DNA of 64,000 nt from an uncultured Candidatus Saccharibacteria bacterium (GTDB taxonomy: Bacteria > Patescibacteriota > Doudnabacteria > UBA920). The DNA lies in contig CAZEKH010000005.1 in assembly GCA_964512925.1 (NCBI GenBank), forward strand, positions 4,325 to 68,324, in the 5' to 3' direction. Both the position numbers and the translations under genes were made by a program. The notes beneath the pieces were generated by a model, which had not been told where the DNA came from, ran no database searches, and saw only the letters and a list, made by a program, of their open reading frames with translations. Of the stretch, positions 5,754 through 59,884 are shown piece by piece; within the stretch, counting starts at the first letter, position 1, and every line of letters begins with the position of its first letter.

Positions 5754-5891
5754 TGTCATCCCGGCCAAAGTTAGACGCGAGCCGGGATCCAGGGTTTGTT
5801 ACTATATTTTTGATTCGATAATCACCTTTGGTCGTTGAAATTCGTAAACCATAACCTCACCCCTAACCCCATCTCCCATATGGGAGAGGGG
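5754..5891 (+). repeat. copy A of a ~140-bp direct repeat (5' hairpin ATCCCGG/CCGGGAT, 3' palindromic element CCTCACCCCTAACC + TCTCCCATATGGGAGA)
   Basis: aligns along its length with 6449..6594. Confidence 0.7.
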
Positions 5892-5938
5892 AAAAAAGGC
5901 ATTTTGAAAGCGCGACCGTACTGTGTCGATCGCGCTGG

Positions 5939-6319
5939 TTATTTTTTGCTTAGGGTTAGGTACACTTCCCATGCCAAATTCTTGATCGTGCAAGTACTTA
6001 AATGTACCTGGATATTTTGCACCCTGAGCGCACGATATAATTGACCATACAATAGGTGGAATTTGACATAATCCATAGAAAGGATTTCGCCTAACAGCGT
6101 ATCACCGGTGAGATCGTCCCACTTTTTTCCACTTACCCGCGACACGCACTCATAAACCGCTTGAACAACCATGAACTCTGTATTTTGAGCACGCAGGTCT
6201 TTGATCGCATCGTACCAGTTTTTAAGGTCTGGTCTGCCGGGGTTTTGGACAGCAATCTGTGCGGCACGCTTAGCTTTCATTATTTCCAGTATTTCCTTTG
6301 TCGGAAGTTTTGTATCCAT
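5939..6319 (-). CDS. hypothetical protein (126 aa) carried between the direct repeats
   Basis: internal ATG of ORF 5939..6334 preceded by GGGAGGAAAAATG Shine-Dalgarno; locally higher GC than surroundings. Confidence 0.45.
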   Translation of the reverse strand: MDTKLPTKEILEIMKAKRAAQIAVQNPGRPDLKNWYDAIKDLRAQNTEFMVVQAVYECVSRVSGKKWDDLTGDTLLGEILSMDYVKFHLLYGQLYRALRVQNIQVHLSTCTIKNLAWEVYLTLSKK

Positions 6320-6448
6320 TTTTCCTCCCATCAAGTGTTCTTAGCCACTCACGGCTAGTGTGTTGCCCGGGGTTCTGCCCGGGCTCAGTACAGTAGATAA
6401 TAGATTTTATAACAAGGGGTGAAAATAGGCAAGAGAGGGTAAAATGTC

Positions 6449-6594
6449 TGTCATCCCGGAATTTTTAAGGGAAGTTAAAAATATCCGGGATCCAGGGTTT
6501 ACTAATTTATTTTTGATTCTATTATTAACTTTGGTCATTGAAATACGGAAGTTATATCCTCACTCCTAACCCCATCTCCTATATGGGAGATTGG
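6449..6594 (+). repeat. copy B of the ~140-bp direct repeat
   Basis: same order of 5' hairpin, conserved core CCGGGATCCAGGGTTT..TTTTTGATTC and 3' CCTCACTCCTAACCCCATCTCCTATATGGGAGA element. Confidence 0.7.
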
Positions 6595-6599
6595 AAAAA

Positions 6600-6630
6600 C
6601 AAAAACCCCGAACTAAATCGGGGTTTTTAA
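6600..6630. terminator. bidirectional rho-independent terminator (AAAACCCCG..CGGGGTTTT) at the 3' end of typA
   Basis: 9-bp GC stem flanked by A-run and T-run. Confidence 0.55.
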
Positions 6631-6636
6631 GTAACA

Positions 6637-8472
6637 TTATCTCGCAGCTCTTTTCCTTTGATTCGGGTCCAGGATTTTTTTGCGGATTCTTATAGACAGG
6701 GGAGTTACTTCCATTAGTTCGTCCGGACCTATATACTCCATCGCAAAGTCCATAGTGACTGGCTTATGCGGGGTTAAGATGATGGCATCGTCTGCGCCTG
6801 AAGATCTCATATTGGTAAGTTTTTTGGTTTTGCAGACATTTAGTTCTATATCTTCGCTTAAAGCGTTTTGCCCGACTACCATACCCTGGTAAACTTCCAC
6901 GGCAGGACCTATAAACAAAGTTCCGCGTTCCTGGGCATTGTTAAGACCGTAAGCGTTCGATGTTCCGCTTTCTGAGGCTATGAGCGATCCGTGGTCGTTG
7001 GCGTGTTCGTCTATCTGGTGAGCTGGTTTGTAGCTGTCAAATAAATTATTCAAAATTACTGTGCCGCGGGTGCGGGTGAGCATCAGGTTTTTAAGGCCAA
7101 TCAGTCCGCGGGTGGGGATCAGATATTCTGCGTGGATTTCTCCGGAAGGAGTGGTTTCCATAGTCTGCAGTTCTCCGCCTCTTTTACCCATTTCTTCTAT
7201 CATCACGCCTTGGTACTCGCTGGGCACATCCACTGTGGCTATTTCATATGGCTCCATCCGCACCCCATTTTCTTCGTGGTAAATAACCTGGGGCTGGGAA
7301 ACCTGGAGTTCAAAGCCTTCACGGCGCATCTGTTCTATAAGAACCGCTAAATGTAGTTCTCCTCGGCCGGAAACTAAAAAGCTTTCCGCGCCTTCGGGCG
7401 ACGGGTCAACTTTCATAGCCACATTGGTTTCCAGCTCCTTGTCCAAGCGGTCGCGGATGTTTCTGGAAGTGACAAACTTTCCTTCGCGGCCCGCAAACGG
7501 GGAAGTGTTTACGCCGAAAGTCATCTTGATGGTAGGCGGCTCTATTTCCACCGGCGGCATAGAAACCGGGTTTTGGATGTCGGTTAAGGTGTCGCCGATA
7601 TGGATGTCGTCAAACCCGCCTATAGAGACAATGTCGCCGGCCACCGCTTCGTCCGCATCCACTTTTTTTAAGCCTTCGTACATCTGGAGGGCGGAAATTT
7701 TACCAGTGGTTTTTTCGCCGTTTGGCTTAACTTGGAGGATATTTTGCGCCTTGCTGATTTTGCCGGAAAATATTTTGCCTATACCCATCCTGCCTTTGTA
7801 GTTGTCGTAAGCCAGAGCTAAGACTTGCAAAGCAAACGGTTTGTCAGTCTCGGCAAAAGGCGCGGGGATGTATTTGATGATAGTTTCAAATAGTGGAGAG
7901 ATGTCAGGGGCAGCAGAATTTTTTATCTTCGCCAACAGGCTTTCCAAATTCAAGTCAGCCAAGCCTTTTACTCCGCTGGCGTAGATGATAGGGAAGTCGG
8001 TCTGTTCGTCATTGGCATTCAGCTTTACGAAGAGGTCAAAAGTTTTATTGATGGTTTCGTCAGGGTTTGAGCCTTCTTTGTCCACTTTGTTTATGACCAC
8101 TATGGCTTTCAGTCCCAGCTGTAAAGCTTTTTTTAAGACGAACTTTGTTTGAGGCATCGGACCTTCTTTGGCGTCAACCAAAAGAAGGACTCCGTCTGCC
8201 ATTTTCAAAGTCCTTTCCACTTCGCCGCCAAAGTCCGCGTGTCCCGGGGTGTCTACAATATTGATCTTTACCCCTTTATACACCAAAGATGCGTTTTTGG
8301 CCTTGATAGTGATCCCGCGTTCTCTTTCCAGATCCATACTGTCCATTATCAAATCCGCGGTGTCGTCATTTTTGACAGTCTGGGTTTGTTTCAGCATAGC
8401 GTCCACCAAAGTGGTTTTGCCGTGGTCAACGTGGGCAATGATGGCGATGTTTCTGATGTTGTCTCTTTTCAT
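6637..8472 (-). CDS. typA: translational GTPase TypA/BipA
   Basis: 611 aa; '[16 protein letters not shown]' G1, DTPGHADF G3, NKVD G4; EF-G-like domain order. Confidence 0.9.
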   Translation of the reverse strand: MKRDNIRNIAIIAHVDHGKTTLVDAMLKQTQTVKNDDTADLIMDSMDLERERGITIKAKNASLVYKGVKINIVDTPGHADFGGEVERTLKMADGVLLLVDAKEGPMPQTKFVLKKALQLGLKAIVVINKVDKEGSNPDETINKTFDLFVKLNANDEQTDFPIIYASGVKGLADLNLESLLAKIKNSAAPDISPLFETIIKYIPAPFAETDKPFALQVLALAYDNYKGRMGIGKIFSGKISKAQNILQVKPNGEKTTGKISALQMYEGLKKVDADEAVAGDIVSIGGFDDIHIGDTLTDIQNPVSMPPVEIEPPTIKMTFGVNTSPFAGREGKFVTSRNIRDRLDKELETNVAMKVDPSPEGAESFLVSGRGELHLAVLIEQMRREGFELQVSQPQVIYHEENGVRMEPYEIATVDVPSEYQGVMIEEMGKRGGELQTMETTPSGEIHAEYLIPTRGLIGLKNLMLTRTRGTVILNNLFDSYKPAHQIDEHANDHGSLIASESGTSNAYGLNNAQERGTLFIGPAVEVYQGMVVGQNALSEDIELNVCKTKKLTNMRSSGADDAIILTPHKPVTMDFAMEYIGPDELMEVTPLSIRIRKKILDPNQRKRAAR

Positions 8473-8490: not shown

Positions 8491-8528
8491 CCCTCCCCAA
8501 GAGTTGGGGAGGGTCAAGGGAGAGGTTG
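8491..8528. repeat. GC-rich nested palindromic element (CCCTCCCCAAGAGTTGGGGAGGG + TCAAGGGAGAGGTTG)
   Basis: perfect 8-bp inner inverted repeat; same family as 5855, 31889, 32284, 59848. Confidence 0.7.
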
Positions 8529-18287: not shown

Positions 18288-18288
18288 A

Positions 18289-24725: not shown

Positions 24726-26027
24726 ATGCCGTATTTTGAGATTTTGAAAAAAGCAGAACTCACCCCAGTCCTCTCTTTAGAAAATAGAGGGAGTGATATA
24801 TTCCCCCCCTCTTTAAGCAAAGAGGGCGAAGGGGGAGTTTTGGGAGCTAGGACGGGCATCATCCATACCGCGCACGGGGATATAAAGACCCCGGCGTTTT
24901 TGCCTATTGGCACCAAAGGCGCGGTAAAGGCTGTGACGGCGGAGGAGCTGAAGTTTTGGGGCGCGGACATCATCCTTGCCAATACCTACCACCTTTGGCA
25001 GCGTCCGGGCGACGCTCTCATATATAAAGCCGGGGGGCTGCATAAATTTATGAACTGGCAAGGGCCTATCTTTACTGACTCCGGGGGGTTTCAGGTTTTC
25101 TCGCTCGCAAAAATGAGAAAAGTTTTAGAATTGGGCGTGCTGTTTCAGTTTGATTTAGACGGCAGGCAGGAACTTTTGTCGCCGGAAAAATCCGTTGATA
25201 TCCAAGCTAACTTAGGCAGCGACATCTGCCTCATACTGGATGATTTTCCGGGATATCCTTGGACTTATGAGCGAAGCAAAGAATCCATTGAGCTTACAAA
25301 CCGTTGGGCTGAAAGGGCGATAAAGGAGCATAAGAGAATAGTGACTGATGGCGACCCCATTAACCCCGGCCAAAAGCTGTGGGGGATAGTTCAGGGCGCA
25401 TCTTTTCCGGACTTAAGGGAAATGTCGGCTAAAGCAATGGTTCAGTTTGGATTTGAAGGCTTTGCCATTGGCGGCGTGGCCGTGGGCGAACCTCACGAGG
25501 AGATGATGAAAGCTGTGGAGGTTACCATACCGCATTTACCGGAAAATGCCCCAAAACATCTTTTGGGCGTCGGAACGCCTTTTGACATTGTTCAGGCAGT
25601 AGCGCGTGGCTGCGATACTTTTGACTGCGTGATCCCGACTAGGGAAGCTAGGCATGGAAGACTCTATATAAATAACAAATATCAAATTTCAAATAACAAA
25701 GCAGACAACCTCTCCCTTTCTCCCTCCCCTCATGAGGGGAGGGAAGGGGTGGGGTTGCAGTTTGAAGGCTATAGTACCATCAATATCTTCAACGAAAAGT
25801 TTAAAGAAGATTTTTCCACCATAGACGATCAGTGCGATTGCTATTTGTGCCAGAACCATACCAAGTCTTACCTTAGACATTTGTTTCAAACTGGCGAGCC
25901 TTTGGCGACAAGGCTTGCAACTATGCACAACCTGAAATTTTATTTAAACTTAATGGCTAAAATCAGGAAATCCATCCAATATGATTATTTTGATGAGATG
26001 GTCTTAAACTACAAAGAAATTAAATAG
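24726..26027 (+). CDS. tgt: queuine tRNA-ribosyltransferase carrying two inserted palindromic elements
   Basis: 433 aa; 'LANTYHL', 'DSGGFQV', 'GFAIGG', Zn site CxCxxC..H (DDQCDCYLCQNH...HL). Confidence 0.85.
   Translation: MPYFEILKKAELTPVLSLENRGSDIFPPSLSKEGEGGVLGARTGIIHTAHGDIKTPAFLPIGTKGAVKAVTAEELKFWGADIILANTYHLWQRPGDALIYKAGGLHKFMNWQGPIFTDSGGFQVFSLAKMRKVLELGVLFQFDLDGRQELLSPEKSVDIQANLGSDICLILDDFPGYPWTYERSKESIELTNRWAERAIKEHKRIVTDGDPINPGQKLWGIVQGASFPDLREMSAKAMVQFGFEGFAIGGVAVGEPHEEMMKAVEVTIPHLPENAPKHLLGVGTPFDIVQAVARGCDTFDCVIPTREARHGRLYINNKYQISNNKADNLSLSPSPHEGREGVGLQFEGYSTINIFNEKFKEDFSTIDDQCDCYLCQNHTKSYLRHLFQTGEPLATRLATMHNLKFYLNLMAKIRKSIQYDYFDEMVLNYKEIK
24757..24840. repeat. nested palindromic element inside tgt codons ~12-39 (CCCCCCCTCTTTAAGCAAAGAGGGCGAAGGGGGAG with outer arms AACTCACCCC/GGGGGAGTT)
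   Basis: ~84 nt, multiple of 3, encodes LTPVLSLENRGSDIFPPSLSKEGEGGVL absent from Tgt orthologs as remembered. Confidence 0.65.
25706..25757. repeat. nested palindromic element inside tgt (CAACCTCTCCC..CCCTCCCCTCATGAGGGGAGGG..AGGGGTGGGGTTG)
   Basis: perfect 8-bp inner arms, ~11-bp outer arms; lies in a ~36-aa segment extra relative to E. coli Tgt. Confidence 0.65.
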
Positions 26028-28467: not shown

Positions 28468-29635
28468 ATATCCTATTTTAGTAAAGAAAAAAGAAAACCT
28501 GGCCTATTTGACTGGCGAGGTTTTTGATTTGCGGACACAGGAGTATCTTTTGGTAAAACCGCTGAAGTACGCGGATAAACGCGGAAGCTATACAGGGGTT
28601 GTTGGGTTTGGCAGCGGTCTGGAAAAAATTTCCTGGGCGCCAAAGTCGGACACTTTATACAACATCGGAAAATATGTGAAAGGCTATGAGAAGTTAAATC
28701 TTGAATATGGGTTTACTTTGGGGGAACATAAGTACATAAAAAGCAAGATCAAGAATTTGAGATTGCAGGTAAAAGTCCAGCCGGAACATTCTCCGGTGGA
28801 TGAGATAAGGCAGATAAAGACCCCGGATGAAATATTGAAGATTAAAAAATCAATGGAAATAGTTAAACAGGTATACAAGTATACTAGGAAGCAAGCGGTG
28901 AAGAGCGGGATGACGGAAGCAATTTTGGCAAAATACATTGAAAATTTGGGTTTAAAGTTGGGGGCAGGCGAGCTGGCGTTTCCGGCCATAGTAGCAAGCG
29001 GTAAGAACGCGGCAATGCCACACCACGTACCTACGAAAAAAAGGTTGAAGCCGGGTGAAAGCATTATTTTGGATTTTGGTTTTTTGGCCGGAGGCCAATC
29101 CGCCACTGGCGGAAAATCTTCATCTAACTACTGCAGCGATTTTACTCGTACGGTTTTTATCAAAAAAGTTCCAAAAAAGCTGGAAATAGCTTATAATCAG
29201 GTGGAGAAAGCTTATTTAGGGAGTATGGAATACATTAACTCCCCCAACCCCCGCCCGAACGCCGCAGGCGGGCAGGCCTCTTTGAAAAAGAGGGAAAAAT
29301 TCACCATCTCCTCCTCTTTGACAAAGAGGAGGCAGGGAGGAGTTCGTGCAGAGGGTGTTTACCAAAAATCAGTCGAGATTTTAGCCGAAAAAAAACTGGA
29401 TAAATATTTTATCCACTCGCTTGGCCATGGTACCGGCCTTGAGATCCACGAAAGGCCTTATTTGGGTCCAAAGTCAAAAGACATTTTAAAAGAAGGAATG
29501 GTTTTCAGTATAGAACCTGGCGTGTATTTTCCCGAGTATGGAGGGGTTCGGATAGAAGATTTGGTCTATATGGAAAATGGAAAAGTAAAAAAATTTATAG
29601 AAGTACCAACAGATTTAAAGTCTAATATTTTATGA
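28427..29635 (+). CDS. M24 family metallopeptidase (Xaa-Pro aminopeptidase-like) with in-frame palindromic insertion; start uncertain (ORF opens at 28346)
   Basis: 'HSLGHGTGLEIHERP', 'FSIEPGVY', 'VRIEDLV' M24 metal-ligand motifs. Confidence 0.65.
   Translation: MEHQRLRQLQQEIKYPILVKKKENLAYLTGEVFDLRTQEYLLVKPLKYADKRGSYTGVVGFGSGLEKISWAPKSDTLYNIGKYVKGYEKLNLEYGFTLGEHKYIKSKIKNLRLQVKVQPEHSPVDEIRQIKTPDEILKIKKSMEIVKQVYKYTRKQAVKSGMTEAILAKYIENLGLKLGAGELAFPAIVASGKNAAMPHHVPTKKRLKPGESIILDFGFLAGGQSATGGKSSSNYCSDFTRTVFIKKVPKKLEIAYNQVEKAYLGSMEYINSPNPRPNAAGGQASLKKREKFTISSSLTKRRQGGVRAEGVYQKSVEILAEKKLDKYFIHSLGHGTGLEIHERPYLGPKSKDILKEGMVFSIEPGVYFPEYGGVRIEDLVYMENGKVKKFIEVPTDLKSNIL
29237..29344. repeat. composite palindromic element inside the M24 peptidase gene (three hairpins: CCGCCCG..CGGGC, CCTCTTTGAAAAAGAGG, CCTCCTCTTTGACAAAGAGGAGG; outer arms AACTCCCCC/GGGAGGAGTT)
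   Basis: 108 nt (36 codons) encoding NSPNPRPNAAGGQASLKKREKFTISSSLTKRRQGGV. Confidence 0.65.
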
Positions 29636-31888: not shown

Positions 31889-31925
31889 CCTCTCCAAGTT
31901 TGGAGAGGGGTTAGGGGAGAGGTTG
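31889..31925. repeat. nested palindromic element (CCTCTCCAAGTTTGGAGAGG + GGTTAGGGGAGAGGTTG) whose 3' arm supplies the SD for the next gene
   Basis: GGGGAGAGG ends 7 nt before the ATG at 31930. Confidence 0.65.
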
Positions 31926-31929: not shown

Positions 31930-32277
31930 ATGAAACGCAAGCCATATTTAGTACATAACGCAAAAAATTTAAGAACGCGTTCAACTATATGGGAAACAAA
32001 ACTTTGGCAATATTTGAGAGGCGGTAGATTTTTTGATTATAAATTTAAAAGACAAGTTGCTATAGAAAAGTATATCGTAGATTTTTGTTGCAATGAAAAA
32101 AAGTTGATCATTGAGTTGGATGGGAGTGGATATCAATTTTCAGAAAAAGATAAAATTCGTGATAAATTTTTTGAAGGGCTAGGTTATAAAATCTTACGTA
32201 TTTGGAATAATGATATTGACAATAATTTTGACGGGGTTCCATTAAGAATTAAACAAAATTTCGATGAAAAAAAATAA
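31930..32277 (+). CDS. DUF559/Vsr-like endonuclease-domain protein
   Basis: 115 aa; 'FKRQVAIEKYIVDFCC...LIIELDGSGY...RDKFFEGLGYKILRIWNND' matches the DUF559 restriction-endonuclease-like fold pattern. Confidence 0.6.
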   Translation: MKRKPYLVHNAKNLRTRSTIWETKLWQYLRGGRFFDYKFKRQVAIEKYIVDFCCNEKKLIIELDGSGYQFSEKDKIRDKFFEGLGYKILRIWNNDIDNNFDGVPLRIKQNFDEKK

Positions 32278-32283: not shown

Positions 32284-32329
32284 ACAACCTCTCCAGGCCT
32301 CCGGCCACCCTCCCCAAACTTGGGGAGGG
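32284..32329. repeat. palindromic element (CAACCTCTCCAGGCCTCCGGCCA + CCCTCCCCAAACTTGGGGAGGGG) immediately 5' of nfo
   Basis: GGGGAGGGG arm lies ~9 nt upstream of the ATG giving MAVGCHVSAAGG. Confidence 0.65.
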
Positions 32330-32338
32330 GAAAGCGGT

Positions 32339-33388
32339 ATGGCTGTGGGTTGTCATGTTTCTGCGGCAGGCGGAGTGTGGAATGCGCCGAAGAATGCAAA
32401 GGATTTAAACTGCGAAACTTTCCAGATATTTACCCGTCCGCCTATGGGCGGACCTGCGCCGAAAATAGACCAGGAGGGAGTAGAGAAATTTAAGATGGAG
32501 ATGGAGAAGTATTATTCTTCATTCCATACAGAAGATGCAGAACCCCTCCCAACCTCCCCTTTGGTAAAGGGGAGGGGTAAGGTAGGTTCCCCCTCTTTTT
32601 CAAAGAGGGGGTTAGGGGGAGTTGGTTTTGTTGTTCACTGCCCGTACATTGTAAATTTTGGTTCAGCAAAGAAAACTACTTTTCACGGATCTATTTCTAT
32701 AGTTTCTGAAGAACTAAAAAGGGCTAATTCGCTTGGAGCTCGGTTTGTTATGACTCACTTAGGCAGCTTTAAGGATTTGGGCCAGGAAAAAGGTATGGTG
32801 CAGGCGCAAAAAGGTTTGGAAGAGGTTTTAAAAAAGTACGAAAGTTCTATAAAAAACAAACAGCCCTCCCAATTTCTTTTAGAGATAGCGGCAGGACAAG
32901 GTGAAGTTATAGGTGATACTTTTGAGGAACTGGCCGAGCTTATGGAGCCGCTAAAAAAATACAAAACTTTCGGGGGAATCTGCTTTGACACTCAGCATGC
33001 TTGGTCTTCGGGATATGATATAACCAAAAGCGAATGGGTAAAACAATTTGAGAAGACTATTGGCCTAAAATGGCTGCGGATGAGCCATATAAACGACTCT
33101 AAAGTTGATTTAGGCGGCAAAAAAGACCGTCACGAGCATATTGGCGAGGGGAAGATAGGAGAAAAGGGGATATATAATTTTATTCGAAATTTAAAATTGA
33201 ACCTGCCTGTCGGCAAGGCAGGGATTGAAGATTTAAACACCCTCTCTACCCGAAGCGGGTCCCTTCTCTCCCAGAAGGGAGAGATTAATAATGTTGTCTT
33301 TGACTCTTTTGCCTTGATTTTAGAAACTGAACATGATAAAGTGAAAACAGACATAAAAATCTTAAAAAAATTAAGGGAAAAAATATAA
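32339..33388 (+). CDS. nfo: endonuclease IV (AP endonuclease family 2) with two in-frame palindromic insertions; longer ORF opens at 32264
   Basis: 'VGCHVSAAGGV', 'ICFDTQHAWSSGYD', 'RMSHINDSK..DRHEHIGEGKIG', 'ALILETE' match Nfo metal-ligand blocks. Confidence 0.8.
   Translation: MAVGCHVSAAGGVWNAPKNAKDLNCETFQIFTRPPMGGPAPKIDQEGVEKFKMEMEKYYSSFHTEDAEPLPTSPLVKGRGKVGSPSFSKRGLGGVGFVVHCPYIVNFGSAKKTTFHGSISIVSEELKRANSLGARFVMTHLGSFKDLGQEKGMVQAQKGLEEVLKKYESSIKNKQPSQFLLEIAAGQGEVIGDTFEELAELMEPLKKYKTFGGICFDTQHAWSSGYDITKSEWVKQFEKTIGLKWLRMSHINDSKVDLGGKKDRHEHIGEGKIGEKGIYNFIRNLKLNLPVGKAGIEDLNTLSTRSGSLLSQKGEINNVVFDSFALILETEHDKVKTDIKILKKLREKI
32541..32625. repeat. double-hairpin element inside nfo (CCTCCCCTTTGGTAAAGGGGAGG and CCCCCTCTTTTTCAAAGAGGGGG)
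   Basis: 85 nt encoding PLPTSPLVKGRGKVGSPSFSKRGLGGVG between conserved KY..S and (I/V)xxH..Y(L/I)xN(L/F)G blocks. Confidence 0.7.
33201..33288. repeat. triple-hairpin element inside nfo (CCTGCC..GGCAGG, ACCCGAAGCGGGT, TCTCTCCCAGAAGGGAGAGA)
   Basis: ~88 nt encoding LPVGKAGIEDLNTLSTRSGSLLSQKGEI, extra relative to E. coli Nfo between GEGxIG and ILETI blocks. Confidence 0.6.
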
Positions 33389-33896: not shown

Positions 33897-33955
33897 AACA
33901 AAACCCCCTCCTAGCCTCCCCCATTTAGGGGAGGAAGGGTATAGGGGTTTTTGTT
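33897..33955. repeat. long imperfect palindromic element (AAAACCCCCTCCTAGCCTCCCCCATTTAGGGGAGGAAGGGTATAGGGGTTTT) followed by T-run; probable terminator
   Basis: inner CCTCCCCC/GGGGGAGG arms, outer AAAACCCC/GGGGTTTT arms. Confidence 0.55.
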
Positions 33956-34009
33956 TTTTACCTATTATATGGTAAAATTACCATATAATTTGCGGCATTT
34001 GTTTAATTT

Positions 34010-35535: not shown

Positions 35536-37131
35536 ATGAATAGATTTTACCTTACAACCACCCTTCCATACGTAAATTCAGACCCTCACTTGGGGTTTGC
35601 TTTGGAAATGGTTTTGGCGGACACAATAGTTCGGTTTCAAAAATTGCAGGGTAAGGAAGTTTTTTTTAATACAGGCACAGACGAGCATGGTCTTAAGATA
35701 TATCAAAAAGCTTTAGAACGAGGTATAAGCCCAAAAGAGTACTGCGACGAATATGCAGAAAAATTTAAACAGCTGATGCCAGCTTTGGGGGTTTTGCCGG
35801 AGATACATTTCATACGCACCACGGACGAACACCATATAAAAGCCTGTCAGGAGTTTTGGAAACTGGTAGATAAAAATGGCTACATAGAAAAGAAAAATTA
35901 TAAGGTCAAATATTGCGTTGGCTGCGAGCTGGAAAAAACTGAAAGCGATCTGTCAGAAGAAGGAAAATGTTTAGTGCACCCGCATTTGGAAATAGAGATT
36001 CGCGAAGAGGAAAATTATTTTTTTAAGTTTAGCGCTTTCCAAAAACCGCTTTTAGAACTTTATGAAAAACAGCCGGATTTTGTTGTGCCGGATTTTCGGT
36101 TTAACGAGATTAGAGAGTTTGTAAAAAATGGACTTTCTGACTTTTCTATCTCGCGGCTTAAAGAAAAAATGCCCTGGGGCGTGCCTGTGCCGGGCGACGA
36201 CAACCACGTTATGTATGTCTGGTTTGACGCGCTTATAAACTATGTTTCAACGTTGGGTTGGCCAGAATACCACCCCTTTAATTCCCCTCCTATTTTAGGA
36301 GGGGAGGGCCAGAATGGCGGGGAGGTTAGTAATTTATTTCAAGAATTCTGGGGGACAAAAGAAAACCCTAACGGAATACAAATTGCAGGCAAGGACAACC
36401 TCCGTCAGCAGTCTGCTATGTGGCAGGCAATGCTTATGGCTGCGGGCCTGCCGAACAGTAAACAAATCATCATCCACGGCTTTATTAACTCCGGGGGGCA
36501 GAAAATGTCCAAATCTTTGGGCAATGTAGCGGATCCTTATAAAATAATTGAAGATTTAAAAATAAAAGGATTGAATAAACAACAGGCGACAGACGCGCTT
36601 CGGTATTATTTACTCAAAGAAATTCCTACTTTTGAAGACGGGGACTACACTTGGGATAGGTTTTTGGAAGTCTATAACTCCGACCTTGCCAACGGCATTG
36701 GCAACCTAACAAGTAGGATTTTGAAAATGAGCATAGCTAATTCAATTTTTCTCTCTCCAGGCGTGGAGAGAGTCCCCGACTCGTCCGCCAAAGCTTTAGC
36801 GGAGGAGGAAGGGGGAGAGAGGTCGCATGATAGTAATTCCCCAAACGATCAAAAAATTAAAGAGTTTATTTCCTCTTACCACTTAAAACTCGCTCTTGAA
36901 GAAATCTGGAAAGATATAAAATTCTGCGATGAATACATTCAAAAAGAAGAACCATTTAAAGTCGTTAAAGTAGACCCGGAAAAAGCAAAAAAGCAGATAG
37001 AGTTTTTACTTGGTAAACTAAAAGAGATAGCAGAAAACCTGCAGCCGTTTTTACCAGACACTTCCCAGCAAATAACAAACAGTTTAAAACCGCTTTCGGG
37101 AGAAATTCCACGGTTGTTTCCGAGGATATAA
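35536..37131 (+). CDS. metG: methionine--tRNA ligase (short form) with two in-frame palindromic insertions
   Basis: 531 aa; 'TTTLPYVNSDPHLG' HIGH-type motif, 'KMSKSLGNV'. Confidence 0.9.
   Translation: MNRFYLTTTLPYVNSDPHLGFALEMVLADTIVRFQKLQGKEVFFNTGTDEHGLKIYQKALERGISPKEYCDEYAEKFKQLMPALGVLPEIHFIRTTDEHHIKACQEFWKLVDKNGYIEKKNYKVKYCVGCELEKTESDLSEEGKCLVHPHLEIEIREEENYFFKFSAFQKPLLELYEKQPDFVVPDFRFNEIREFVKNGLSDFSISRLKEKMPWGVPVPGDDNHVMYVWFDALINYVSTLGWPEYHPFNSPPILGGEGQNGGEVSNLFQEFWGTKENPNGIQIAGKDNLRQQSAMWQAMLMAAGLPNSKQIIIHGFINSGGQKMSKSLGNVADPYKIIEDLKIKGLNKQQATDALRYYLLKEIPTFEDGDYTWDRFLEVYNSDLANGIGNLTSRILKMSIANSIFLSPGVERVPDSSAKALAEEEGGERSHDSNSPNDQKIKEFISSYHLKLALEEIWKDIKFCDEYIQKEEPFKVVKVDPEKAKKQIEFLLGKLKEIAENLQPFLPDTSQQITNSLKPLSGEIPRLFPRI
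36268..36327. repeat. palindromic element inside metG (CCCCTCCTATTTTAGGAGGGG) flanked by 8-bp direct repeat GCCAGAAT
   Basis: encodes FNSPPILGGEGQNGGEVS; GCCAGAAT at ~36261 and ~36309. Confidence 0.6.
36749..36822. repeat. composite element inside metG (CTCTCTCCAGGCGTGGAGAGAG, CCGCCAAAGCTTTAGCGG, G-rich tail AGGAGGAAGGGGGAGAGAGG)
   Basis: 74 nt encoding LSPGVERVPDSSAKALAEEEGGERS. Confidence 0.55.
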
Positions 37132-38163: not shown

Positions 38164-39219
38164 TTGTCAATGCTAATCGACACCCACGCTCACATTAACT
38201 TTAAAGCTTATGAAGACGACGCAGAGGAAGTTTTGCGCAGGGCTTTTGAGAGTGGGGTTATGGTTATAAACGTGGGGACGCAGTTGGACACTTCAGAGCA
38301 GTCTGTTAGGCTTGCTGAGAGGTACTCTAAAAAAAATATCCCTCCTCACTCCTCCCTTAATTTAAGGGAGGAAGCAGCACAATTACCCCCTCTTAAGGTA
38401 AGAGGGGGTCAGGGGGGTGATATTAAGGCGGTTTATTCCGTAGTTGGACTTCATCCCGTTCATACTTACTCCCAGCACGTAGACGAAGAAGAGAGTCATT
38501 TTAAAACGCGGGAAGAAAAGTTTGACTATGAGGCGTATAAAAAATTGGCACAAAATGATTTGGTGGTGGGGATTGGGGAATGTGGACTTGATTATTTTAG
38601 ATTGAAGATTGATGATTTAAGATTGCCAATAGAACAAATTAAAGAAAATCAGAAACAGGCATTTATGCAACAGGTGAGGCTGGCAAAGGAACTAAACAAA
38701 GCTTTGGTCATACACTGTAGGCCTTCGGAGGGGACGAGTGATGCGTATGAAGATATACTGGCAATTCTGGATTCAGAATTGCAAATTTCAAATATCAAAT
38801 TACAAAATTCAACAAACTCCGCTACACCCTCTACCCTAAACCCTAATCCCTTTCGTTTTGAGATCCACTCTTTTACTGGTACCCCCGACATAGTCCAAGA
38901 GTTTTTAAAGCGTGGCGCGTATGTGGGGCTAAATGGTATAATTACATTCGGAGACCGAAAATCAAAAAATATAGCGACGTCCGCCTCGGGCGGAGATAAG
39001 AGTGGAAACATGGACAATGTTTTGAAAACTGTCCCTTTAGACCGTATTGTCCTTGAAACTGACAGCCCGTATCTTACGCCAAAACCAAACCGGGGCAAAA
39101 GAAACGAGCCTTCCTATGTCCGTTTTGTTGCCGAACATATTGCTCAAGTAAAAAATATAGATTTTGCCCAAGTCGAAGAGCAAACCACAAAAAACGCAAT
39201 TAATTTGTTTAAGTTATAA
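38164..39219 (+). CDS. tatD: TatD-family metal-dependent DNase/hydrolase with in-frame palindromic insertion
   Basis: 351 aa; 'IDTHAHIN', 'VGLHP', 'IGECGLDY', 'ALVIHCR', 'LETDSPYL' TatD blocks. Confidence 0.8.
   Translation: MSMLIDTHAHINFKAYEDDAEEVLRRAFESGVMVINVGTQLDTSEQSVRLAERYSKKNIPPHSSLNLREEAAQLPPLKVRGGQGGDIKAVYSVVGLHPVHTYSQHVDEEESHFKTREEKFDYEAYKKLAQNDLVVGIGECGLDYFRLKIDDLRLPIEQIKENQKQAFMQQVRLAKELNKALVIHCRPSEGTSDAYEDILAILDSELQISNIKLQNSTNSATPSTLNPNPFRFEIHSFTGTPDIVQEFLKRGAYVGLNGIITFGDRKSKNIATSASGGDKSGNMDNVLKTVPLDRIVLETDSPYLTPKPNRGKRNEPSYVRFVAEHIAQVKNIDFAQVEEQTTKNAINLFKL
38335..38424. repeat. nested double-hairpin element inside tatD (CTCCCTTAATTTAAGGGAG, CCCCCTCTTAAGGTAAGAGGGGG; outer arms AATATCCCTCC/GGGGGGTGATATT)
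   Basis: 90 nt = 30 codons encoding KKNIPPHSSLNLREEAAQLPPLKVRGGQGGDIKA between RYS and VYSVVGLHP. Confidence 0.7.
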
Positions 39220-39223
39220 ATTT

Positions 39224-39774: not shown

Positions 39775-42393
39775 ATGTCAAGTAGATATAATCCACAGAA
39801 AATTGAAACTAAGTGGCCCTCCTACGCTAAAGCTACGAAGGGCAGGCAAAAGGTTTCTAAATATAAACCCCAGGAAATTGAACGTAAGTGGCAGTCACTG
39901 TGGTTTAAGAAGAAGCCTTTTTCTGCTGTGGAAAATAAGAGAAAGAAAAAATACATTTTAGTTGAGTTTCCTTACCCTTCGGGAGCGGGTTTACATATGG
40001 GGCACTTAAGGCCGTATGTGGCGGCAGATGTAACTGCTAGGTTTTTGCGCCTTACCGGGCATGAGGTTTTGTTTCCTATGGGCTGGGACGCGTTTGGGCT
40101 GCCGGCGGAAAACTACGCCATAAAAATGGGAGTGCACCCGACCATAACCACCAAGAAAAATGTGGCGAACGCAAAAAAACAAATGTTGTCGTGGGGGCTT
40201 TCTTTTGACTGGAAAAGGGAGATAAACACAACTGACCCTAACTACTACAAATGGACGCAGTGGTTGTTTTTGCAATTTTTCAAAAAAGGTTTGGCGTTTG
40301 AAAAAACCGGACTTATAAACTGGTGTCCAAAAGACAAGACAGGGCTTGCCAACGAAGAAGTAATAGACGGCAAATGCGAACGCTGCGGAACAGTAGTTGA
40401 AAAAAAAGAACTTCGCCAATGGTACCTAAAAATCACAGACTACGCTGAGAAATTATTAGCTGGTCTAAAGGATTTAACCGAATGGCCTGAAGCAGTCAAG
40501 CTTCAGCAGGAAAATTGGATAGGGAAAAAGACGGGCATAAACATTACATATGAGATTGAAGGTAAAAACAAAACAATAACTTGTTTTACCACGCGTCCTG
40601 ATACTAATTTTGGCGCAACTTTTATCGTTATTGGTCCTGAGCATCCTTTGATACAGCAAAATGAACTTGGTATTCAGAACTATGACGAAGTTAAAAGGTA
40701 TATCGAAAAAGCAAAGGAACAGACTGAGCAAGACAGGACTGCGGAGAATCGCAAAAAAACAGGAGTCTTTACTGGGCTATATTGCATAAATACTTTAAAT
40801 AACTACAAGATGCCTTTGTATGTAGCAGATTATGTTCTTGGAAATGTGGGCACAGGGGCTGTGGTCGGGGTGCCTGGGCACGACAAACGGGATTTTGAGT
40901 TTGCGCAAGTTTTTGGTATTGAAGTAAAAAGAGTTGTGCAAAAAAATGTAGACGATACTGGAATTATTGACCATATAGACAAGGTTCAAGAAGAAGAAGG
41001 GAAGATGGTAAATTCCGGTTTCTTAAATGGGCTTGATATTCACGAGGCCACTGAGAAAATAATGGACTATATGGAAAGTGAGGGTTATGGTAAAAGAGTT
41101 ACCAACTACAAACTCCGTGACTGGGTGTTTTCGCGCCAGCGTTACTGGGGAGAGCCGATACCTTTAATTCATTGCGATCCGCCAGCTGGCGGATGTGGCG
41201 TTGTGGCTGTACCGGAAAAAGATTTACCGGTTAAACTTCCAAATGTAAAAAAATACGAACCGACGGGAACAGGAGAGTCGCCGCTGGCTGGCATAGACAA
41301 ATGGGTAAATACCAAATGCCCGAAGTGCAAAGGCCCGGCTAAAAGGGAAACCAACACCATGCCTCAGTGGGCGGGCAGCTCGTGGTATTGGCTTAGGTAT
41401 TTGGACCCTAAAAATACCAAAACTTTTTCCGACATAAAAAAACAGAAATATTGGACACCGGTAGATGTGTATTTTGGCGGGATGGAACACACGACTTTAC
41501 ATTTGCTTTATTCACGTTTTTGGAATTTGTTTTTATACGACCAAAAGCTGGTTACAGAAAAAGAACCTTACAAGAGGCGTTTTCCGCACGGGATAATTTT
41601 GGGCCCAGATGGGGAAAAAATGTCTAAGAGTAGAGGCAACGTGGTGGATCCGCAGAAATTGGTCAAAGAATTTGGCGCTGACGCGGTACGTATGTATCAG
41701 CTGTTTTTAGGTCCTCACGGGGATATGATTGCTTGGAATGACCAGGGGATAGTCGGAGTGAAAAGGTTTTTGGATAGAGTTTGGAGTTGGGCACAGCAAT
41801 TGAATATTGAAGATATAAGATTGAAGATTGTAGACAGTGAGATAGTAGAACGGGAGATAAACAAACTGGTTAAGAAAATCACTGAGGACTTGGAAGCAAT
41901 GCGGTTTAATACCTGTATTTCGGCTTTTATGTCGTTTTTAAATGAAGTCAAAGACGAGCAAGTGTCTTTAGAAACAGTTAGAAAGTTTTTGATTCTTTTG
42001 AGCCCGTTTGCGCCGCATATTGCTGAAGAACTACTTGAGAGAGTTAGAGAGTTAGAGAGTAAGAGGGTGAGTAGATCAGTTAATCAGACAATCAGTAAAT
42101 CAGAAAGTCAGAAAGTCAAAACAAAACTCCCTCCAACCCCCTCTTTGTCAAAGAGGGGGAGCAAGGGGGAGTTCGCAGAGTGGCCTCAGTGGGACGAGAG
42201 TAAAATTTTAGAAGCTACAGCAGAGATCATCGTCCAGGTTAACGGCAAAGTCAAAGGCAAGGTAGTTGTGCCAAACCAAAGCAGTGAAGAAGTGGTAAAA
42301 GAAGCTATGCTGAAACTCCCGCAGTTTTCGTCTCTTGGTGAAATAAAAAGAACAATCTATGTGCCCAATAGACTTATTAACTTAGTTATTTAG
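39775..42393 (+). CDS. leuS: leucine--tRNA ligase; start uncertain (ORF opens at 39667)
   Basis: 'PYPSGAGLHMGHLRPY' HIGH motif, 'GEKMSKSRGNVVDP' KMSKS, CP1 editing domain, C-terminal 'QVNGKVKGKVVV'. Confidence 0.9.
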   Translation: MSSRYNPQKIETKWPSYAKATKGRQKVSKYKPQEIERKWQSLWFKKKPFSAVENKRKKKYILVEFPYPSGAGLHMGHLRPYVAADVTARFLRLTGHEVLFPMGWDAFGLPAENYAIKMGVHPTITTKKNVANAKKQMLSWGLSFDWKREINTTDPNYYKWTQWLFLQFFKKGLAFEKTGLINWCPKDKTGLANEEVIDGKCERCGTVVEKKELRQWYLKITDYAEKLLAGLKDLTEWPEAVKLQQENWIGKKTGINITYEIEGKNKTITCFTTRPDTNFGATFIVIGPEHPLIQQNELGIQNYDEVKRYIEKAKEQTEQDRTAENRKKTGVFTGLYCINTLNNYKMPLYVADYVLGNVGTGAVVGVPGHDKRDFEFAQVFGIEVKRVVQKNVDDTGIIDHIDKVQEEEGKMVNSGFLNGLDIHEATEKIMDYMESEGYGKRVTNYKLRDWVFSRQRYWGEPIPLIHCDPPAGGCGVVAVPEKDLPVKLPNVKKYEPTGTGESPLAGIDKWVNTKCPKCKGPAKRETNTMPQWAGSSWYWLRYLDPKNTKTFSDIKKQKYWTPVDVYFGGMEHTTLHLLYSRFWNLFLYDQKLVTEKEPYKRRFPHGIILGPDGEKMSKSRGNVVDPQKLVKEFGADAVRMYQLFLGPHGDMIAWNDQGIVGVKRFLDRVWSWAQQLNIEDIRLKIVDSEIVEREINKLVKKITEDLEAMRFNTCISAFMSFLNEVKDEQVSLETVRKFLILLSPFAPHIAEELLERVRELESKRVSRSVNQTISKSESQKVKTKLPPTPSLSKRGSKGEFAEWPQWDESKILEATAEIIVQVNGKVKGKVVVPNQSSEEVVKEAMLKLPQFSSLGEIKRTIYVPNRLINLVI
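42036..42173. repeat. composite insertion in leuS 3' region: tandem GAGAGTTA and AATCAG/AAGTCAG repeats followed by nested palindrome AACTCCCTCC..CCCCCTCTTTGTCAAAGAGGGGG..GGGGGAGTT
   Basis: encodes ERVRELESKRVSRSVNQTISKSESQKVKTKLPPTPSLSKRGSKGE between conserved APHIAEEL and WPxWDE blocks. Confidence 0.65.
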
Positions 42394-49010: not shown

Positions 49011-49128
49011 ACCCCCTCTCCCGTGTGGGAGAGGGTTGGGGTGAGGTTTCAGCGATGGTAATAAAACCAAGGTTTGTTATTATCAAACATTATTACCTCA
49101 CCCTAGCCCTCTCCGTGATCGGAGAGGG
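49011..49128. repeat. symmetric composite of two palindromic elements in opposite orientation around an AT-rich inner hairpin
   Basis: CCCTCTCCCGTGTGGGAGAGGG+TTGGGGTGAGGT ... ACCTCACCCTAGC+CCTCTCCGTGATCGGAGAGG. Confidence 0.65.
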
Positions 49129-49808: not shown

Positions 49809-49846
49809 TCCTCTCCGTTATCGGAGAGGGTAGGGTGAGGTAACGG
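49809..49846. repeat. palindromic element (CCTCTCCGTTATCGGAGAGG + GTAGGGTGAGGTAACGG)
   Basis: same family, reverse orientation. Confidence 0.65.
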
Positions 49847-56988: not shown

Positions 56989-57005
56989 AAAGTTATTGAA
57001 AATTT

Positions 57006-58039: not shown

Positions 58040-58105
58040 AATACCACCCCGCCCTGCGGGCACCCCTCCTATATTTAGGCGGGGAAAATCCGAAAGGTTT
58101 CCGGA
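58040..58105. repeat. hairpin cluster in rpsL leader (CCCGCCCTGCGGG, CCCCTCCTATATTTAGGCGGGG, ATCCGAAAGGTTTCCGGAT)
   Basis: CCCCTCCTAT(A)TTTAGG core identical to metG element at 36281. Confidence 0.45.
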
Positions 58106-58603: not shown

Positions 58604-58684
58604 ATCAGTAAAATCAGATATTAGTAAATCAGATCATTTTTTACTGATCTACTGATAAACTGACAAACTGATAACTAAAAACTT

Positions 58685-59269
58685 ATGCCAAGAAAATCAC
58701 GAAATTACGACAAACATGTGCCAGAACCGGATCCGAAATACGGGTCGGTTAAATATGCCAAGTTTATCAATTACATCATGGAGCGCGGAAAGAAAAATGT
58801 TGCGCGCAAGATTTTTTACGATGCTTTGGATATAGTGGAAGAGAAAGTTAAAGCTTTGCAGCCGCAGGGCGGGGCTAAAACAGGTGCCCCTGCAAAAGCC
58901 GGCGCAGATAAAACCGGAGAAAAACCGGCAAAAGAAGAAAAGACTGTGGCTTTGGACGGCCGCCAAGTTTTTGATATTGCTTTGAAGAATGTGGGCCCCT
59001 TGATGGAACTAAAAAGCCGCCGCGTAGGCGGAGCTAACTACCAGGTTCCTATGGAAGTTGTTGAACCAAGAAGAACAGTTCTCGCTATGCGCTGGATACT
59101 GGCTTCCTGCCGCGCCAAAAAAGGCGTGCCAATGGCAATGAGACTGGCTACTGAAATTGTGGATGCTTACCAGAAACAGGGAGCTTCCATCAAAAAGCGT
59201 GAAGATGTGCACCGTATGGCAGAAGCCAACAAAGCCTTTGCCCACTTTGCAAGGTTTAACCGCAGATAA
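58685..59269 (+). CDS. rpsG: 30S ribosomal protein S7 with ~32-aa Ala/Lys/Gly/Pro-rich insertion
   Basis: 'KSRRVGGANYQVP', 'ALAMRWI', 'KKREDVHRMAEANKAFAHF'. Confidence 0.9.
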   Translation: MPRKSRNYDKHVPEPDPKYGSVKYAKFINYIMERGKKNVARKIFYDALDIVEEKVKALQPQGGAKTGAPAKAGADKTGEKPAKEEKTVALDGRQVFDIALKNVGPLMELKSRRVGGANYQVPMEVVEPRRTVLAMRWILASCRAKKGVPMAMRLATEIVDAYQKQGASIKKREDVHRMAEANKAFAHFARFNRR

Positions 59270-59485
59270 ACTACAGAACTACGAATTTGGAAACACTACA
59301 GATACCTACAGAAGTAAAGGAAGTATTTAGATATAGTGTTCGAATTTACGAATAGGACGAATCTGCGAATGATTGCGAATAAGATTTTCTTGATGATACT
59401 TTGATGAAAAGTATGAAAAAATAATAAAAAAAGTCCCACACCCGTCCGTTGAGTGAAACGAGTGTGGGGGCAGGAAAAGTGGTTT

Positions 59486-59635
59486 CTATAGAAAATCTGC
59501 TAGATATCGTGCCACGCCATAGGATGCTAGTACCTTGAAGGTCCATACAGCGACGGTTATCGGTTTTTCCTTCCAGCAGACGACGGTTATTATCACACCG
59601 TAAAACAAACCTGACTGGATGTAGTTTGGGTCCAT
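59486..59635 (-). CDS. hypothetical 50-aa membrane peptide with AAGGAG SD
   Basis: internal Met of ORF 59486..59710; preceded by CTTTACAAAACTCTCTCTCTGATATTTTT box shared with gene 62104..62316. Confidence 0.35.
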   Translation of the reverse strand: MDPNYIQSGLFYGVIITVVCWKEKPITVAVWTFKVLASYGVARYLADFL

Positions 59636-59761
59636 TAAATACTCCTTTTCAGGAGTAAAAATATCAGAGAGAGAGTTTTGTAAAGGCTGGTAGGAAATTT
59701 TGAACAACAAATTTTAAATCAAATTTGAATTTCAAAATTCATTGAAAATTGTCCGGCAAAG

Positions 59762-59809
59762 TCGGATCCCGCTTTGCGGGAAAATCGGATCCCGCTTTGC
59801 GGGAAAAAT
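59762..59809. repeat. tandem 24-bp direct repeat (TCGGATCCCGCTTTGCGGGAAAA x2), each a TCCCGC/GCGGGA hairpin
   Basis: two adjacent identical units; related single unit at 57021..57037. Confidence 0.65.
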
Positions 59810-59847
59810 TGTAAAATTAAAAAATTGAAAATTAATTAAATACTTAT

Positions 59848-59884
59848 CAACCTCTCCCTGGCCCTCCCCAGGTCTTGGGGAGGG
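59848..59884. repeat. nested palindromic element (CAACCTCTCCCTGG + CCCTCCCCAGGTCTTGGGGAGGG) 18 nt upstream of fusA
   Basis: perfect 8-bp inner inverted repeat. Confidence 0.7.

Follow-up and report, generated by a model that had tools for sequence, protein, structure and literature searches.

The window analysed here, 64,000 nucleotides of a contig from an uncultured Candidatus Saccharibacteria bacterium (CAZEKH010000005.1, positions 4,325 to 68,324; GTDB lineage Doudnabacteria), contains many short GC-rich palindromic repeats, and these repeats are members of the BoxC/PIT/TM family known from Escherichia coli. Half of the window's sites are, as judged from alignments with orthologs and solved structures, true in-frame insertions in essential genes. 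Modules of the family bracket genes for DUF559 endonucleases far above chance, in inverted orientation and in several phyla, and one such gene lies between two copies in the window itself. We propose that the solo copies are probably miniature, non-autonomous derivatives of a selfish element linked to DUF559. Both the in-gene lifestyle and the partnership with DUF559 appear to be undescribed.

BoxC (Bergler, 1992), the PIT elements (Hoyne/Maher, 2000) and the G/C-rich intrastrand triplex motif, TM or TMECO (Holder et al., 2015; PMC4666352), are one and the same repeat. As defined for TM, a pyrimidine arm is followed by a complementary purine arm and by a third purine-rich block antiparallel to the second, with G*G, A*A or T*A triads and loops of 1–6 nt; in vitro the motif folds back on itself as a stable triplex, in which a purine third strand joins the hairpin (PMC4666352). 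E. coli K-12 has 23 copies, five of them as inverted pairs, and the motif, which marks variable regions in E. coli, is found in more than 260 genomes, its function unknown (PMC4666352).

Results

The repeats of the window belong to the BoxC/PIT/TM family

The unit is a perfect 7–10-bp hairpin (C/T arm, 3–5-nt loop, G/A arm) followed, over a 1–7-nt linker that is frequently TTA or TTG, by a second purine block, for example CCCTCTCCC GTGT GGGAGAGGG TT GGGGTGAGG. Modules measure 34–39 nt and composites 49–110 nt. Intergenic copies are half units with the third block on one side, four on each strand, with 33897..33956 listed as an intergenic full element. In-gene copies either have an extra block on both sides (AACCTCTCCC ... 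GGGGAGAGGTT) or are two-hairpin composites, and the full ones present the three-block motif on both strands. The original prediction had described an outer imperfect inverted repeat around the hairpins; the outer blocks are indeed complementary, but each also mirrors the adjacent hairpin arm, with T allowed opposite A, as in AAAGAGGGGG then GGGGGAGTT or AAAGGGGAGG then GGAGGGGTT. That the outer blocks are mirrors of the neighbouring arms explains the AAC...GTT ends. Variant arms in other genomes are mirrored alike (GGGAAGGG by GGGATGGG, GGGGAAAGG by GGATAGGGG), and we rely on such explicit examples because a statistic comparing own with cross mirror covariation was biased by its pre-selected 'own' set. 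Judged from its letters, a single strand should be able to fold into a hairpin with a purine third strand, and the mirror block points to a structure at the DNA level.

We built a covariance model from nothing but 12 published E. coli TMECO copies of 36 nt; this E. coli BoxC model finds 8 matches in the window at E<=0.022 and 19 at E<0.5. The best are at 49014 (E=4.1e-8), 49094 (2.8e-6), 59849 (4.1e-5), 32589 in nfo (1.6e-4) and 25722 in tgt (5.5e-4), followed by matches at E=0.0038, 0.0053 and 0.022. The copies thus align as a family under a statistical model, as had been asked of them, and the core module, whose sequence family the original prediction had not recognised, is that of BoxC/PIT/TM. 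Over the 19 matches 98.8% of cells are paired. Compensatory double changes occur at 6 of 10 pairs, always from C-G to U-A, a level that none of 500 shuffles reached, and the covarying hairpins always keep the pyrimidine arm 5'. The copy at 49014, CCCTCTCCCGTGTGGGAGAGGGTTGGGGTGAGG, is nearly the same as E. coli CCCTCTCCCTGTGGGAGAGGGCCGGGGTGAGGG. Closely spaced inverted pairs are found in the window (49011–49048 on the plus and 49094–49128 on the minus strand) and in the loci L021, L055, L063 and L084. One reported property of the E. coli copies, their invariably intergenic location, has no match here, with 10 of 19 sites in frame in genes; it is not part of the motif definition. Outside the window, an exact-pattern scan with one genome per species returned exact modules at at least 120 loci, and those listed fall in Chloroflexota, Bacteroidota, Cyanobacteria, Ignavibacteria, Armatimonadota, Patescibacteria, Planctomycetota, Acidobacteriota and some Proteobacteria. 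An Rfam scan of the window gave four tRNAs only, with the elements matching no family, and a literature search for palindromic elements of the candidate phyla radiation or for their encoded peptides (NLTPNP, PSPKGEG and others) gave nothing relevant.

The window has a GC content of ~40% and its genes lie mostly on the plus strand. A GC-rich inverted repeat is present at all 19 coordinates of the original list, of which ~16 are typical copies; those at 33201, 36749 and 58040 are atypical or degenerate, that at 6558 is decayed, and the copy at 49094–49128 (minus), the inverted partner of 49011, had been missed. Perfect GC-rich hairpins with a C/T 5' arm (stem >=7, loop 3–10) number 15, against 0.15 expected from dinucleotide shuffles of the window, while purine-first hairpins of the same kind number 0. 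Because the polarity of a hairpin is the same on either strand, the pyrimidine-first bias belongs to the family itself and does not stem from the direction of the genes. The claim that both orientations occur is true of the asymmetric half elements alone. G-rich three-block motifs, hairpin plus mirror purine block with >=7 triads, number 21 against 0.03 in shuffles, when a second loop of up to 7 nt is allowed (2 of the 21, at 31889 and 33245, need 7), and they include the typical copies of the list. The terminal 10-mer GGAGAGGTTG occurs five times, with 0.12 occurrences expected.

In-gene copies are insertions in essential proteins

Ten sites are coding and nine intergenic, so the earlier statement that about half sit inside open reading frames without breaking them stands. 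The host genes are tgt (two sites), map, nfo (three sites), metG (two sites), tatD and leuS. The likeness in behaviour to Rickettsia palindromic elements was also well seen, as the copies keep the frame of the conserved genes they sit in and orthologs lack them. The check proposed for this, absence from relatives, came out in two parts: syntenic orthologs 77–83% identical lack the inserts, but some carry different hairpins at the same site. In the syntenic relatives L003 and L004, protein and DNA alignments reveal shorter Map, Nfo, MetRS and TatD, with clean gaps at the elements.

The window's Tgt is 70–83% identical to proteins of Candidatus Doudnabacteria and other Patescibacteria. Its gene is identical, inserts included, in two independent read-set assemblies (L001 and L002), which means that the inserts are not assembly artefacts. 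Near the N-terminus sits an in-frame two-hairpin composite (24757..24840, plus; peptide ELTPVLSLENRGSDIFPPSLSKEGEGGV; ends AACTCACCCC...GGGGGAGTT; triads on both strands), missing from most orthologs in a 26-sequence alignment, in which 3 others have unrelated inserts at the same point. The second site holds a full element (25706..25758, plus), CAACCTCTCCC TTTC TCCCTCCCCT CATG AGGGGAGGGA A GGGGTGGGGTTG, which encodes DNLSLSPSPHEGREGVGL and is matched by the E. coli BoxC model at E=5.5e-4 on the plus and 0.063 on the minus strand. Here 34 residues replace a 2-residue turn of solved TGT; such alignments to solved structures were used instead of an AlphaFold2 model of Tgt, which was built on the 26-sequence alignment and was unusable (mean pLDDT 50). 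At this second site the outer arms, ACAACCYCTC ... GAGAGGTTGCA, are common to the window, L004 and L125, while the inner hairpins differ among the three, being more numerous in L004 and L125, and are still perfect. L126 has elements with other outer arms and L003 has none. Tgt site 2 is old and keeps being remodelled.

The methionine aminopeptidase gene map contains an in-frame composite (29237..29346, plus, triads on both strands) that runs from an outer block over a mixed GC hairpin and pyrimidine-first hairpins at 29277–29293 and 29310–29332 to the outer block GGGAGGAGTT; it is absent in L003, and L004 has a different element at the same site. Three sites lie in nfo (endonuclease IV), all on the plus strand and all empty in both L003 and L004: a full element that forms the N-terminal extension of Nfo, directly 3' of the DUF559 gene (32284..32352, hairpin 32308–32329); a composite of a full and a half module (32541..32623; peptide EPLPTSPLVKGRGKVGSPSFSKRGLGGV; E. 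coli BoxC model E=1.6e-4 at 32589 and 0.045 at 32543, minus); and atypical inserts (33202..33283) made of a 21-nt CCTGCCT hairpin and a weak pyrimidine-first module at 33260–33280 (E=0.47). In MetRS the element at 36268..36330 (plus; peptide YHPFNSPPILGGEGQNGGEV; 9 triads) meets an unrelated insert at the same place in L004, and the atypical composite at 36749..36824 (plus), consisting of CTCTCTCCA GGCG TGGAGAGAG, a TCCGCC-type hairpin and the outer block GGGGGAGAGAGG, is absent in L004. TatD carries a two-hairpin composite with triads (38335..38424, plus; peptide NIPPHSSLNLREEAAQLPPLKVRGGQGGDI) and has ~37 extra residues compared with solved TatD/YcfH. In LeuRS a full element (42125..42173, plus, triads on both strands), AACTCCCTCC AA CCCCCTCTTT GTC AAAGAGGGGG AGCAA GGGGGAGTT, lies in the linker before the C-terminal domain, where the window's protein has an insert of 38 residues and Mycoplasma LeuRS only 3 residues. 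In other genomes, exact modules are in frame in ValRS (Candidatus Uhrbacteria), AspRS (Cytophagales) and Fpg (Saccharibacteria), as well as in an ABC exporter, a PatG protease, a CCA/poly(A) polymerase and an adenylate cyclase.

Compared with orthologs, the net insertions amount to whole codons, as the original prediction had it, but the palindromic core is not always a multiple of 3; at nfo site 2, for instance, the 102-nt insert comprises an 83-nt core and 19 nt of other sequence. Since frames are kept and stops are absent, the inserts are likely to be translated, and GSDIFPPSLSK, ADNLSLSPSPHEGR and LPPTPSLSK are predicted peptides that span them. Intergenic DNA makes up 17% of the sequence but holds 9 of the 19 sites, a ~4-fold over-representation (p=0.002), and 66 of 108 frames through the elements are open compared with 51.5±4.9 in random-segment controls. 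The two observations together fit the loss of most coding insertions and the survival of whole-codon, stop-free ones. The stronger notion that arms of pure C/T and G/A leave an element open in all six frames proved only partly true, as loops and linkers supply stops.

A DUF559 nuclease gene is bracketed by modules

Between two of the copies lies a gene that the original prediction did not mention (31930..32277, plus). It encodes a 115-aa endonuclease of the DUF559/YcjD family, of Vsr/EDxHD-like PD-(D/E)XK type (PF04480, E=1.7e-33; best NCBIfam match the YcjD family, PRK09767; PDB 3hrl, E=5.7e-18). A single PD-(D/E)XK family has been described that unites DUF559, Vsr and the I-Bth0305I structure 3r3p (PMC3424549). 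Directly 5' of the gene stands a half element (31889..31925, plus), CCTCTCCA AGTT TGGAGAGG GGTTA GGGGAGAGGTTG, which is a perfect mirror repeat about TTA. Its last ten nucleotides, GGAGAGGTTG (31916–31925), end 4 nt before the ATG, and CAACCTCTCC (32285–32294) begins 7 nt after the stop codon; the two form a perfect inverted 10-mer. The remaining three occurrences of this 10-mer end the solo copies at 8519, 25706 and 59848. Identity of termini with those of a longer, gene-carrying element, which is the mark of a miniature inverted-repeat transposable element, is thus found in the DUF559 bracket of the window and again in the L033 unit described below.

Residues D51, E62 and D64 are conserved in the window's DUF559 protein, which may be an inactive copy, a conserved histidine being missing from its sequence. 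Its close homologs are mostly free-standing Patescibacteria proteins of 110–130 aa, some of them extended at the N-terminus by translated hairpins. In relatives the DUF559 gene is found at other positions, each time adjoining pyrimidine-first hairpins. Many of the homologs P0123–P0235 are on contigs of 0.5–1 kb and some fall in clusters of 20–40 member sequences, as expected if the gene and its flanks were repeated and broke assemblies.

Three of the motif-selected loci that contain DUF559 display the arrangement. In L084, a Cyclobacteriaceae contig, modules touch the DUF559 gene on both sides. In L103 the DUF559 domain is in frame in a larger open reading frame, between two full modules. In L033 the LeuRS of a Ferruginibacter contains, in frame, a AACCTCACCCC-hairpin, DUF559 and a hairpin-GGGTGAGGT, and this unit ends in AACCTCACCCC...GGGTGAGGT like the window's solo in-gene copies. 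If the nuclease part were deleted from such a unit, what remained would be exactly the two-hairpin composites of the window's genes. Separately, L084 has four tandem ~62-nt units at 3550–3790, each with a half element (AACCTGTCCCCCGGCCCCTCTCCGAGGCGGAGAGGGG...), directly upstream of DUF559, and similar tandem arrays are present in L144, L149 and L182.

The association was measured on 80 metagenomic loci picked by DUF559 peptide patterns alone (from a three-sequence alignment), which are the best-scoring relatives of Bacteroidota-type queries and not a random DUF559 sample. Pyrimidine-first GC hairpins fall from 5.56 per kb within 100 nt of DUF559 to 3.94 at 100–200 nt, 0.76 at 200–400 nt and 0.13 at 1.6–3.2 kb. 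Within 200 nt the density is 4.74 per kb compared with 0.23 beyond (~20-fold); such a hairpin lies within this distance in 61 of the 80 loci, and on both sides in 44. Control hairpins are enriched 1.4-fold (other GC-rich) or depleted (AT-rich, 0.5-fold). The E. coli BoxC model agrees, with 127 of its 170 matches (E<=0.01) within 200 nt of DUF559, a zone that makes up ~10% of the flanking DNA. Among the 36 loci with modules on both sides, the nearest two stand in inverted orientation in 28, and both arrangements are seen, with either the third blocks or the hairpins facing DUF559.

The same neighbours are found in E. coli K-12, where the DUF559 gene ycjD (b1289) adjoins fabI. A BoxC-type hairpin overlaps the ycjD stop codon, and 170 nt beyond the gene follows copy no. 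9 of Holder et al., a full BoxC. At this locus (L207, 1351330–1351465) the last ~25 nt of ycjD (gaatattctccagcaccgtctcc) are also duplicated ~100 nt downstream, before the BoxC; the duplicate may be the remnant of a second DUF559 3' end. A literature search on DUF559 or YcjD found no paper linking either with BoxC.

Intergenic copies and other repeats of the window

The intergenic copies closest to the E. coli family form the inverted pair with a 45-nt spacer: the half element at 49011..49048 (plus) is the nearest of all to E. coli BoxC (37.3 bits, E=4.1e-8 with the E. coli BoxC model, as for all E-values here), and its right-hand partner is at 49094..49128 (minus, E=2.8e-6). Other half elements are found 19 nt upstream of fusA (59848..59884, minus; E=4.1e-5; terminal 10-mer), at 49809..49842 (plus; E=0.022; 7 triads) and between the divergent typA and AI-2E transporter genes (8491..8528, plus; E=0.0053; 7 triads; terminal 10-mer), the last reading CCCTCCCCAA GAG TTGGGGAGGG TCAA GGGAGAGGTTG. 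The full element at 33897..33956 reads AACAAAACCCCCTCC TAG CCTCCCC CATTTA GGGGAGG ... GGGGTTTTTGTTT (E=0.34). A degenerate and doubtful member upstream of rpsL (58040..58084) retains 8 of 9 pairs and has no match to the model. The half element at 5853..5891 (minus; E=0.0038) has hairpin then mirror purine block on the minus strand and reads AACCTCACCCC TAA CCCCATCTCCC ATAT GGGAGAGGGG on the plus strand. It is inside one copy of a 115-nt direct repeat (5782–5896 and 6485–6599, 83% identical), each copy of which ends in a BoxC-type half element, and the second holds the decayed counterpart at 6556..6594 (minus; E=5.1). The repeats flank a minus-strand open reading frame of 131 aa (5939–6334) with no Pfam or NCBIfam match, perhaps a further cargo gene or the duplicated end of a gene.

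A second small family of GC hairpins, TCCGCC-NNN-GGCGGA and also TTGGCC-GGA-GGCCAA and TCCCGC-CTT-GCGGGA, is present in map (29086–29115), tatD (38976–38990) and metG (36785–36803) and between genes at 57005–57035 and 59752–59805. It forms intergenic tandem copies as well as short in-frame inserts, whose peptides AGGQSATGGKSS and TSASGGDKSG have no counterpart in relatives or solved homologs. Tgt orthologs P0072, P0093, P0109, P0027 and P0008 carry a different recurrent in-frame insert that encodes ...DPPSPRLRRTAPDS... (alignment columns 400–500), sometimes with a duplicated host segment, EGYSTIDIR; it appears to be a further family of GC-rich palindromic repeats in Patescibacteria. Pairs of AT-rich intergenic direct repeats (77–88% identical) stand upstream of genes at 8537–8579/59339–59381 and 57122–57161/62381–62420. 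One pair adjoins the elements 8491 and 59848, and the pairs could be shared promoter or leader sequences. The start of leuS (39667–39870) is uncertain, since the mechanical reading frame begins at a TTG ~35 codons before the first ATG (~39769) and overlaps the frame at 39164–39691. In the closest relative, L003, the MetRS at the metG position (10608–12050) is far more divergent than in the window and L004, which suggests gene replacement at a conserved position.

Discussion

Proposed mechanism and alternatives

What could connect a triplex motif, in-frame insertions and a nuclease gene? We infer that the solo copies are miniature derivatives of a full element that would consist of two inverted modules around a gene for a DUF559 (YcjD-family, Vsr/EDxHD-like) endonuclease. 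This nuclease, or the repair of the breaks it makes, would copy modules to new sites. DUF559 would mobilise the modules or use them as homing sites. Insertions in genes would survive only if their net length is a whole number of codons, if they fall in a surface turn, a linker or a terminus, and if they are free of stops, which pyrimidine-only and purine-only arms would favour; they would then be translated as Pro/Ser/Leu ... Gly/Glu/Arg loops. A wider version of this proposal, for which we see the chances as even, is that BoxC/PIT/TM repeats across bacteria are the inverted terminal modules and non-autonomous offspring of an unrecognised selfish element whose sole gene is DUF559. Modules, and even the complete cassette with the nuclease, could lodge in frame in essential genes, such as those of aminoacyl-tRNA synthetases, without an intron or intein, because the arms are pure pyrimidine and pure purine.

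Several points weigh against this proposal. E. coli copies have been reported to be all intergenic and to have no link to mobile elements (PMC4666352). Among the matches listed, DUF559 is present in 4 of the 120 motif-selected loci, and the 80 loci of the association test were drawn from relatives of one type of query. The window's DUF559 protein reads ELDGSGYQF where homologs read ELDGSQH, so that the histidine is absent there. No pair of near-identical strains, one filled and one precisely empty, was found, the relative nearest to the window being 83% identical in Tgt, and no target-site duplication is evident at alignable boundaries, for which the relatives are too distant to give exact empty sites. 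The excess of stop-free frames is modest (z about 3). Finally, that DUF559 cleaves DNA and mobilises the modules is itself something we infer, and homing of DUF559 genes into modules already in place would predict the same association just as well.

The last point leads to the main rival, in which the direction is reversed. The modules would be structural DNA selected by the host, such as triplex or cruciform sites that pause replication or promote recombination, and parasitic DUF559 genes would home into them, which would make the nuclease a passenger and not the driver. We regard this as unlikely. The association data give no direction, solo copies outnumber DUF559 genes (~20:1 in the window, 23:1 in E. 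coli K-12), the motif's stable triplex in vitro and its tie to variable regions suit a structural role, and the gene stands either between third blocks or between hairpins, as would be expected for two kinds of pre-existing pairs. Left unexplained are the copies in tgt, leuS, metG and nfo that relatives lack, as well as the in-frame module-DUF559-module arrangement in LeuRS with the ends of a solo copy; moreover, experiments in E. coli have found no function for the motif (PMC4666352). Descent from a DUF559-linked element remains our preferred explanation.

Could the hairpins act instead as RNA, for instance by stabilising mRNA, by termination or attenuation, or by hiding GGAGG runs of Shine-Dalgarno type, with the in-gene copies as by-products? 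The stems are perfect and covarying, the purine arms resemble ribosome-binding sites, the block 5' of DUF559 is at Shine-Dalgarno distance from the ATG, and several copies stand just before or after genes. Nevertheless we consider this improbable. The conserved mirror purine block is superfluous for an RNA hairpin, and purine-motif triplexes are stated not to form in RNA (PMC4666352). U-runs are absent after the hairpins, half elements are split four and four between the strands relative to transcription, Rfam has no match, and PIT elements had no promoter, terminator or polymerase effects in E. coli in vivo (PMC4666352). A specific role as terminator or promoter was rejected on the lack of T-runs, the two orientations and these published negative tests.

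Only slightly less probable than a role in RNA is an origin by local, repeated replication errors in an AT-rich genome (template switching, quasi-palindrome correction), with no mobile family and no enzyme. Elements at one site differ in their inner hairpins and yet stay perfect, as quasi-palindrome correction would have it, and small hairpin inserts of another sequence type also lie in frame. However, template switching gives inverted and not mirror repeats, the same 10-mer ends come back at five sites, and the module matches E. coli copies at E=4e-8 and, in many phyla, patterns of 35 nt exactly; no hairpin is purine-first, and the 20-fold clustering around DUF559 would have no explanation. 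That the copies are true relatives of Rickettsia palindromic elements, or low-complexity Pro/Gly-rich linkers evolving as protein, is very improbable in spite of their in-frame sites in conserved genes and loop-like peptides, given that identical DNA modules are also intergenic and on both strands, that the DNA is conserved while the peptides differ by frame, and that lengths of 35–110 nt and a spread over many phyla leave the palindromic nature as the only resemblance.

Significance of the repeat and its partner

The same ~35-nt DNA motif extends from E. coli to candidate-phyla bacteria, cyanobacteria and Bacteroidota, which gives a name to a repeat that had seemed unknown. It is not confined to intergenic DNA and remodels essential proteins (Tgt, MetAP, Nfo, MetRS, LeuRS and TatD in the window; ValRS, AspRS and Fpg elsewhere), and so bears on annotation, on alignments and on how the 'insertions' typical of candidate-phyla proteins are read. 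The tight and orientation-specific association makes DUF559 the first testable candidate for a partner enzyme of BoxC/PIT, and it gives a first hypothesis on what E. coli YcjD, and with it the large family of DUF559 proteins, may do. BoxC/PIT/TM has been without known function or origin since 1992, and this 30-year-old question now becomes accessible to experiment.

Comparison with known systems

With the BoxC/PIT/TM copies of E. coli the window elements share the three-block architecture, T opposite A, a length of 34–38 nt, TTA/TTG linkers, inverted pairs and a nearly identical sequence. They differ in that half of the sites are in frame in essential genes, in the many full or multi-hairpin copies and in the bracketing of DUF559.

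Rickettsia palindromic elements, reportedly described by Ogata and colleagues in 2000, are likewise palindromic repeats that lie in frame at surface positions of conserved proteins, are lacking from orthologs and are found between genes too. They are 100–150 bp long, are restricted to Rickettsia and its relatives, are not homopurine/homopyrimidine and have no mirror third block; to our knowledge they have no partner gene. Membership was rejected on modules of 34–39 nt, composites of 49–110 nt and a Patescibacteria host, a separation that follows the described properties of the families RPE-1 to RPE-8 and not an alignment to their consensus sequences. The likeness in in-frame insertion is one of behaviour, not descent.

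A parallel in organisation is offered by repetitive extragenic palindromic (REP) sequences and REPINs with their RAYT genes, where short hairpin repeats, often in inverted pairs, far outnumber the single-copy gene that they flank. RAYTs are HUH/Y1 transposases of IS200/IS605 type, and REPs are extragenic and are not triplex motifs. In the window the flanked gene is DUF559 (PF04480; PD-(D/E)XK, Vsr-like fold) and not a Y1 transposase, and no GTAG-type head stands beside the hairpins of the window elements; the family scan covered part of the window's open reading frames.

EDxHD/Vsr-like homing endonucleases, such as I-Bth0305I and those of the 'fractured genes', which Dassa (in 2009) and Taylor (in 2011) are said to have described, are also small selfish nuclease genes that invade conserved genes. 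The known ones are carried by group I introns or between split inteins and do not remain in the host product, whereas here the nuclease domain, or the flanking modules alone, stay in frame without an intron or intein. Finally, the GC clusters of yeast and fungal mitochondria and the byp elements of Magnusiomyces are GC-rich palindromic mini-elements that invade the genes of an AT-rich genome, with nested insertions. They are organellar, and byp elements break the frame and are bypassed by ribosomes; in the window, unlike in byp, the frames are kept open, which argues for translation of the inserts.

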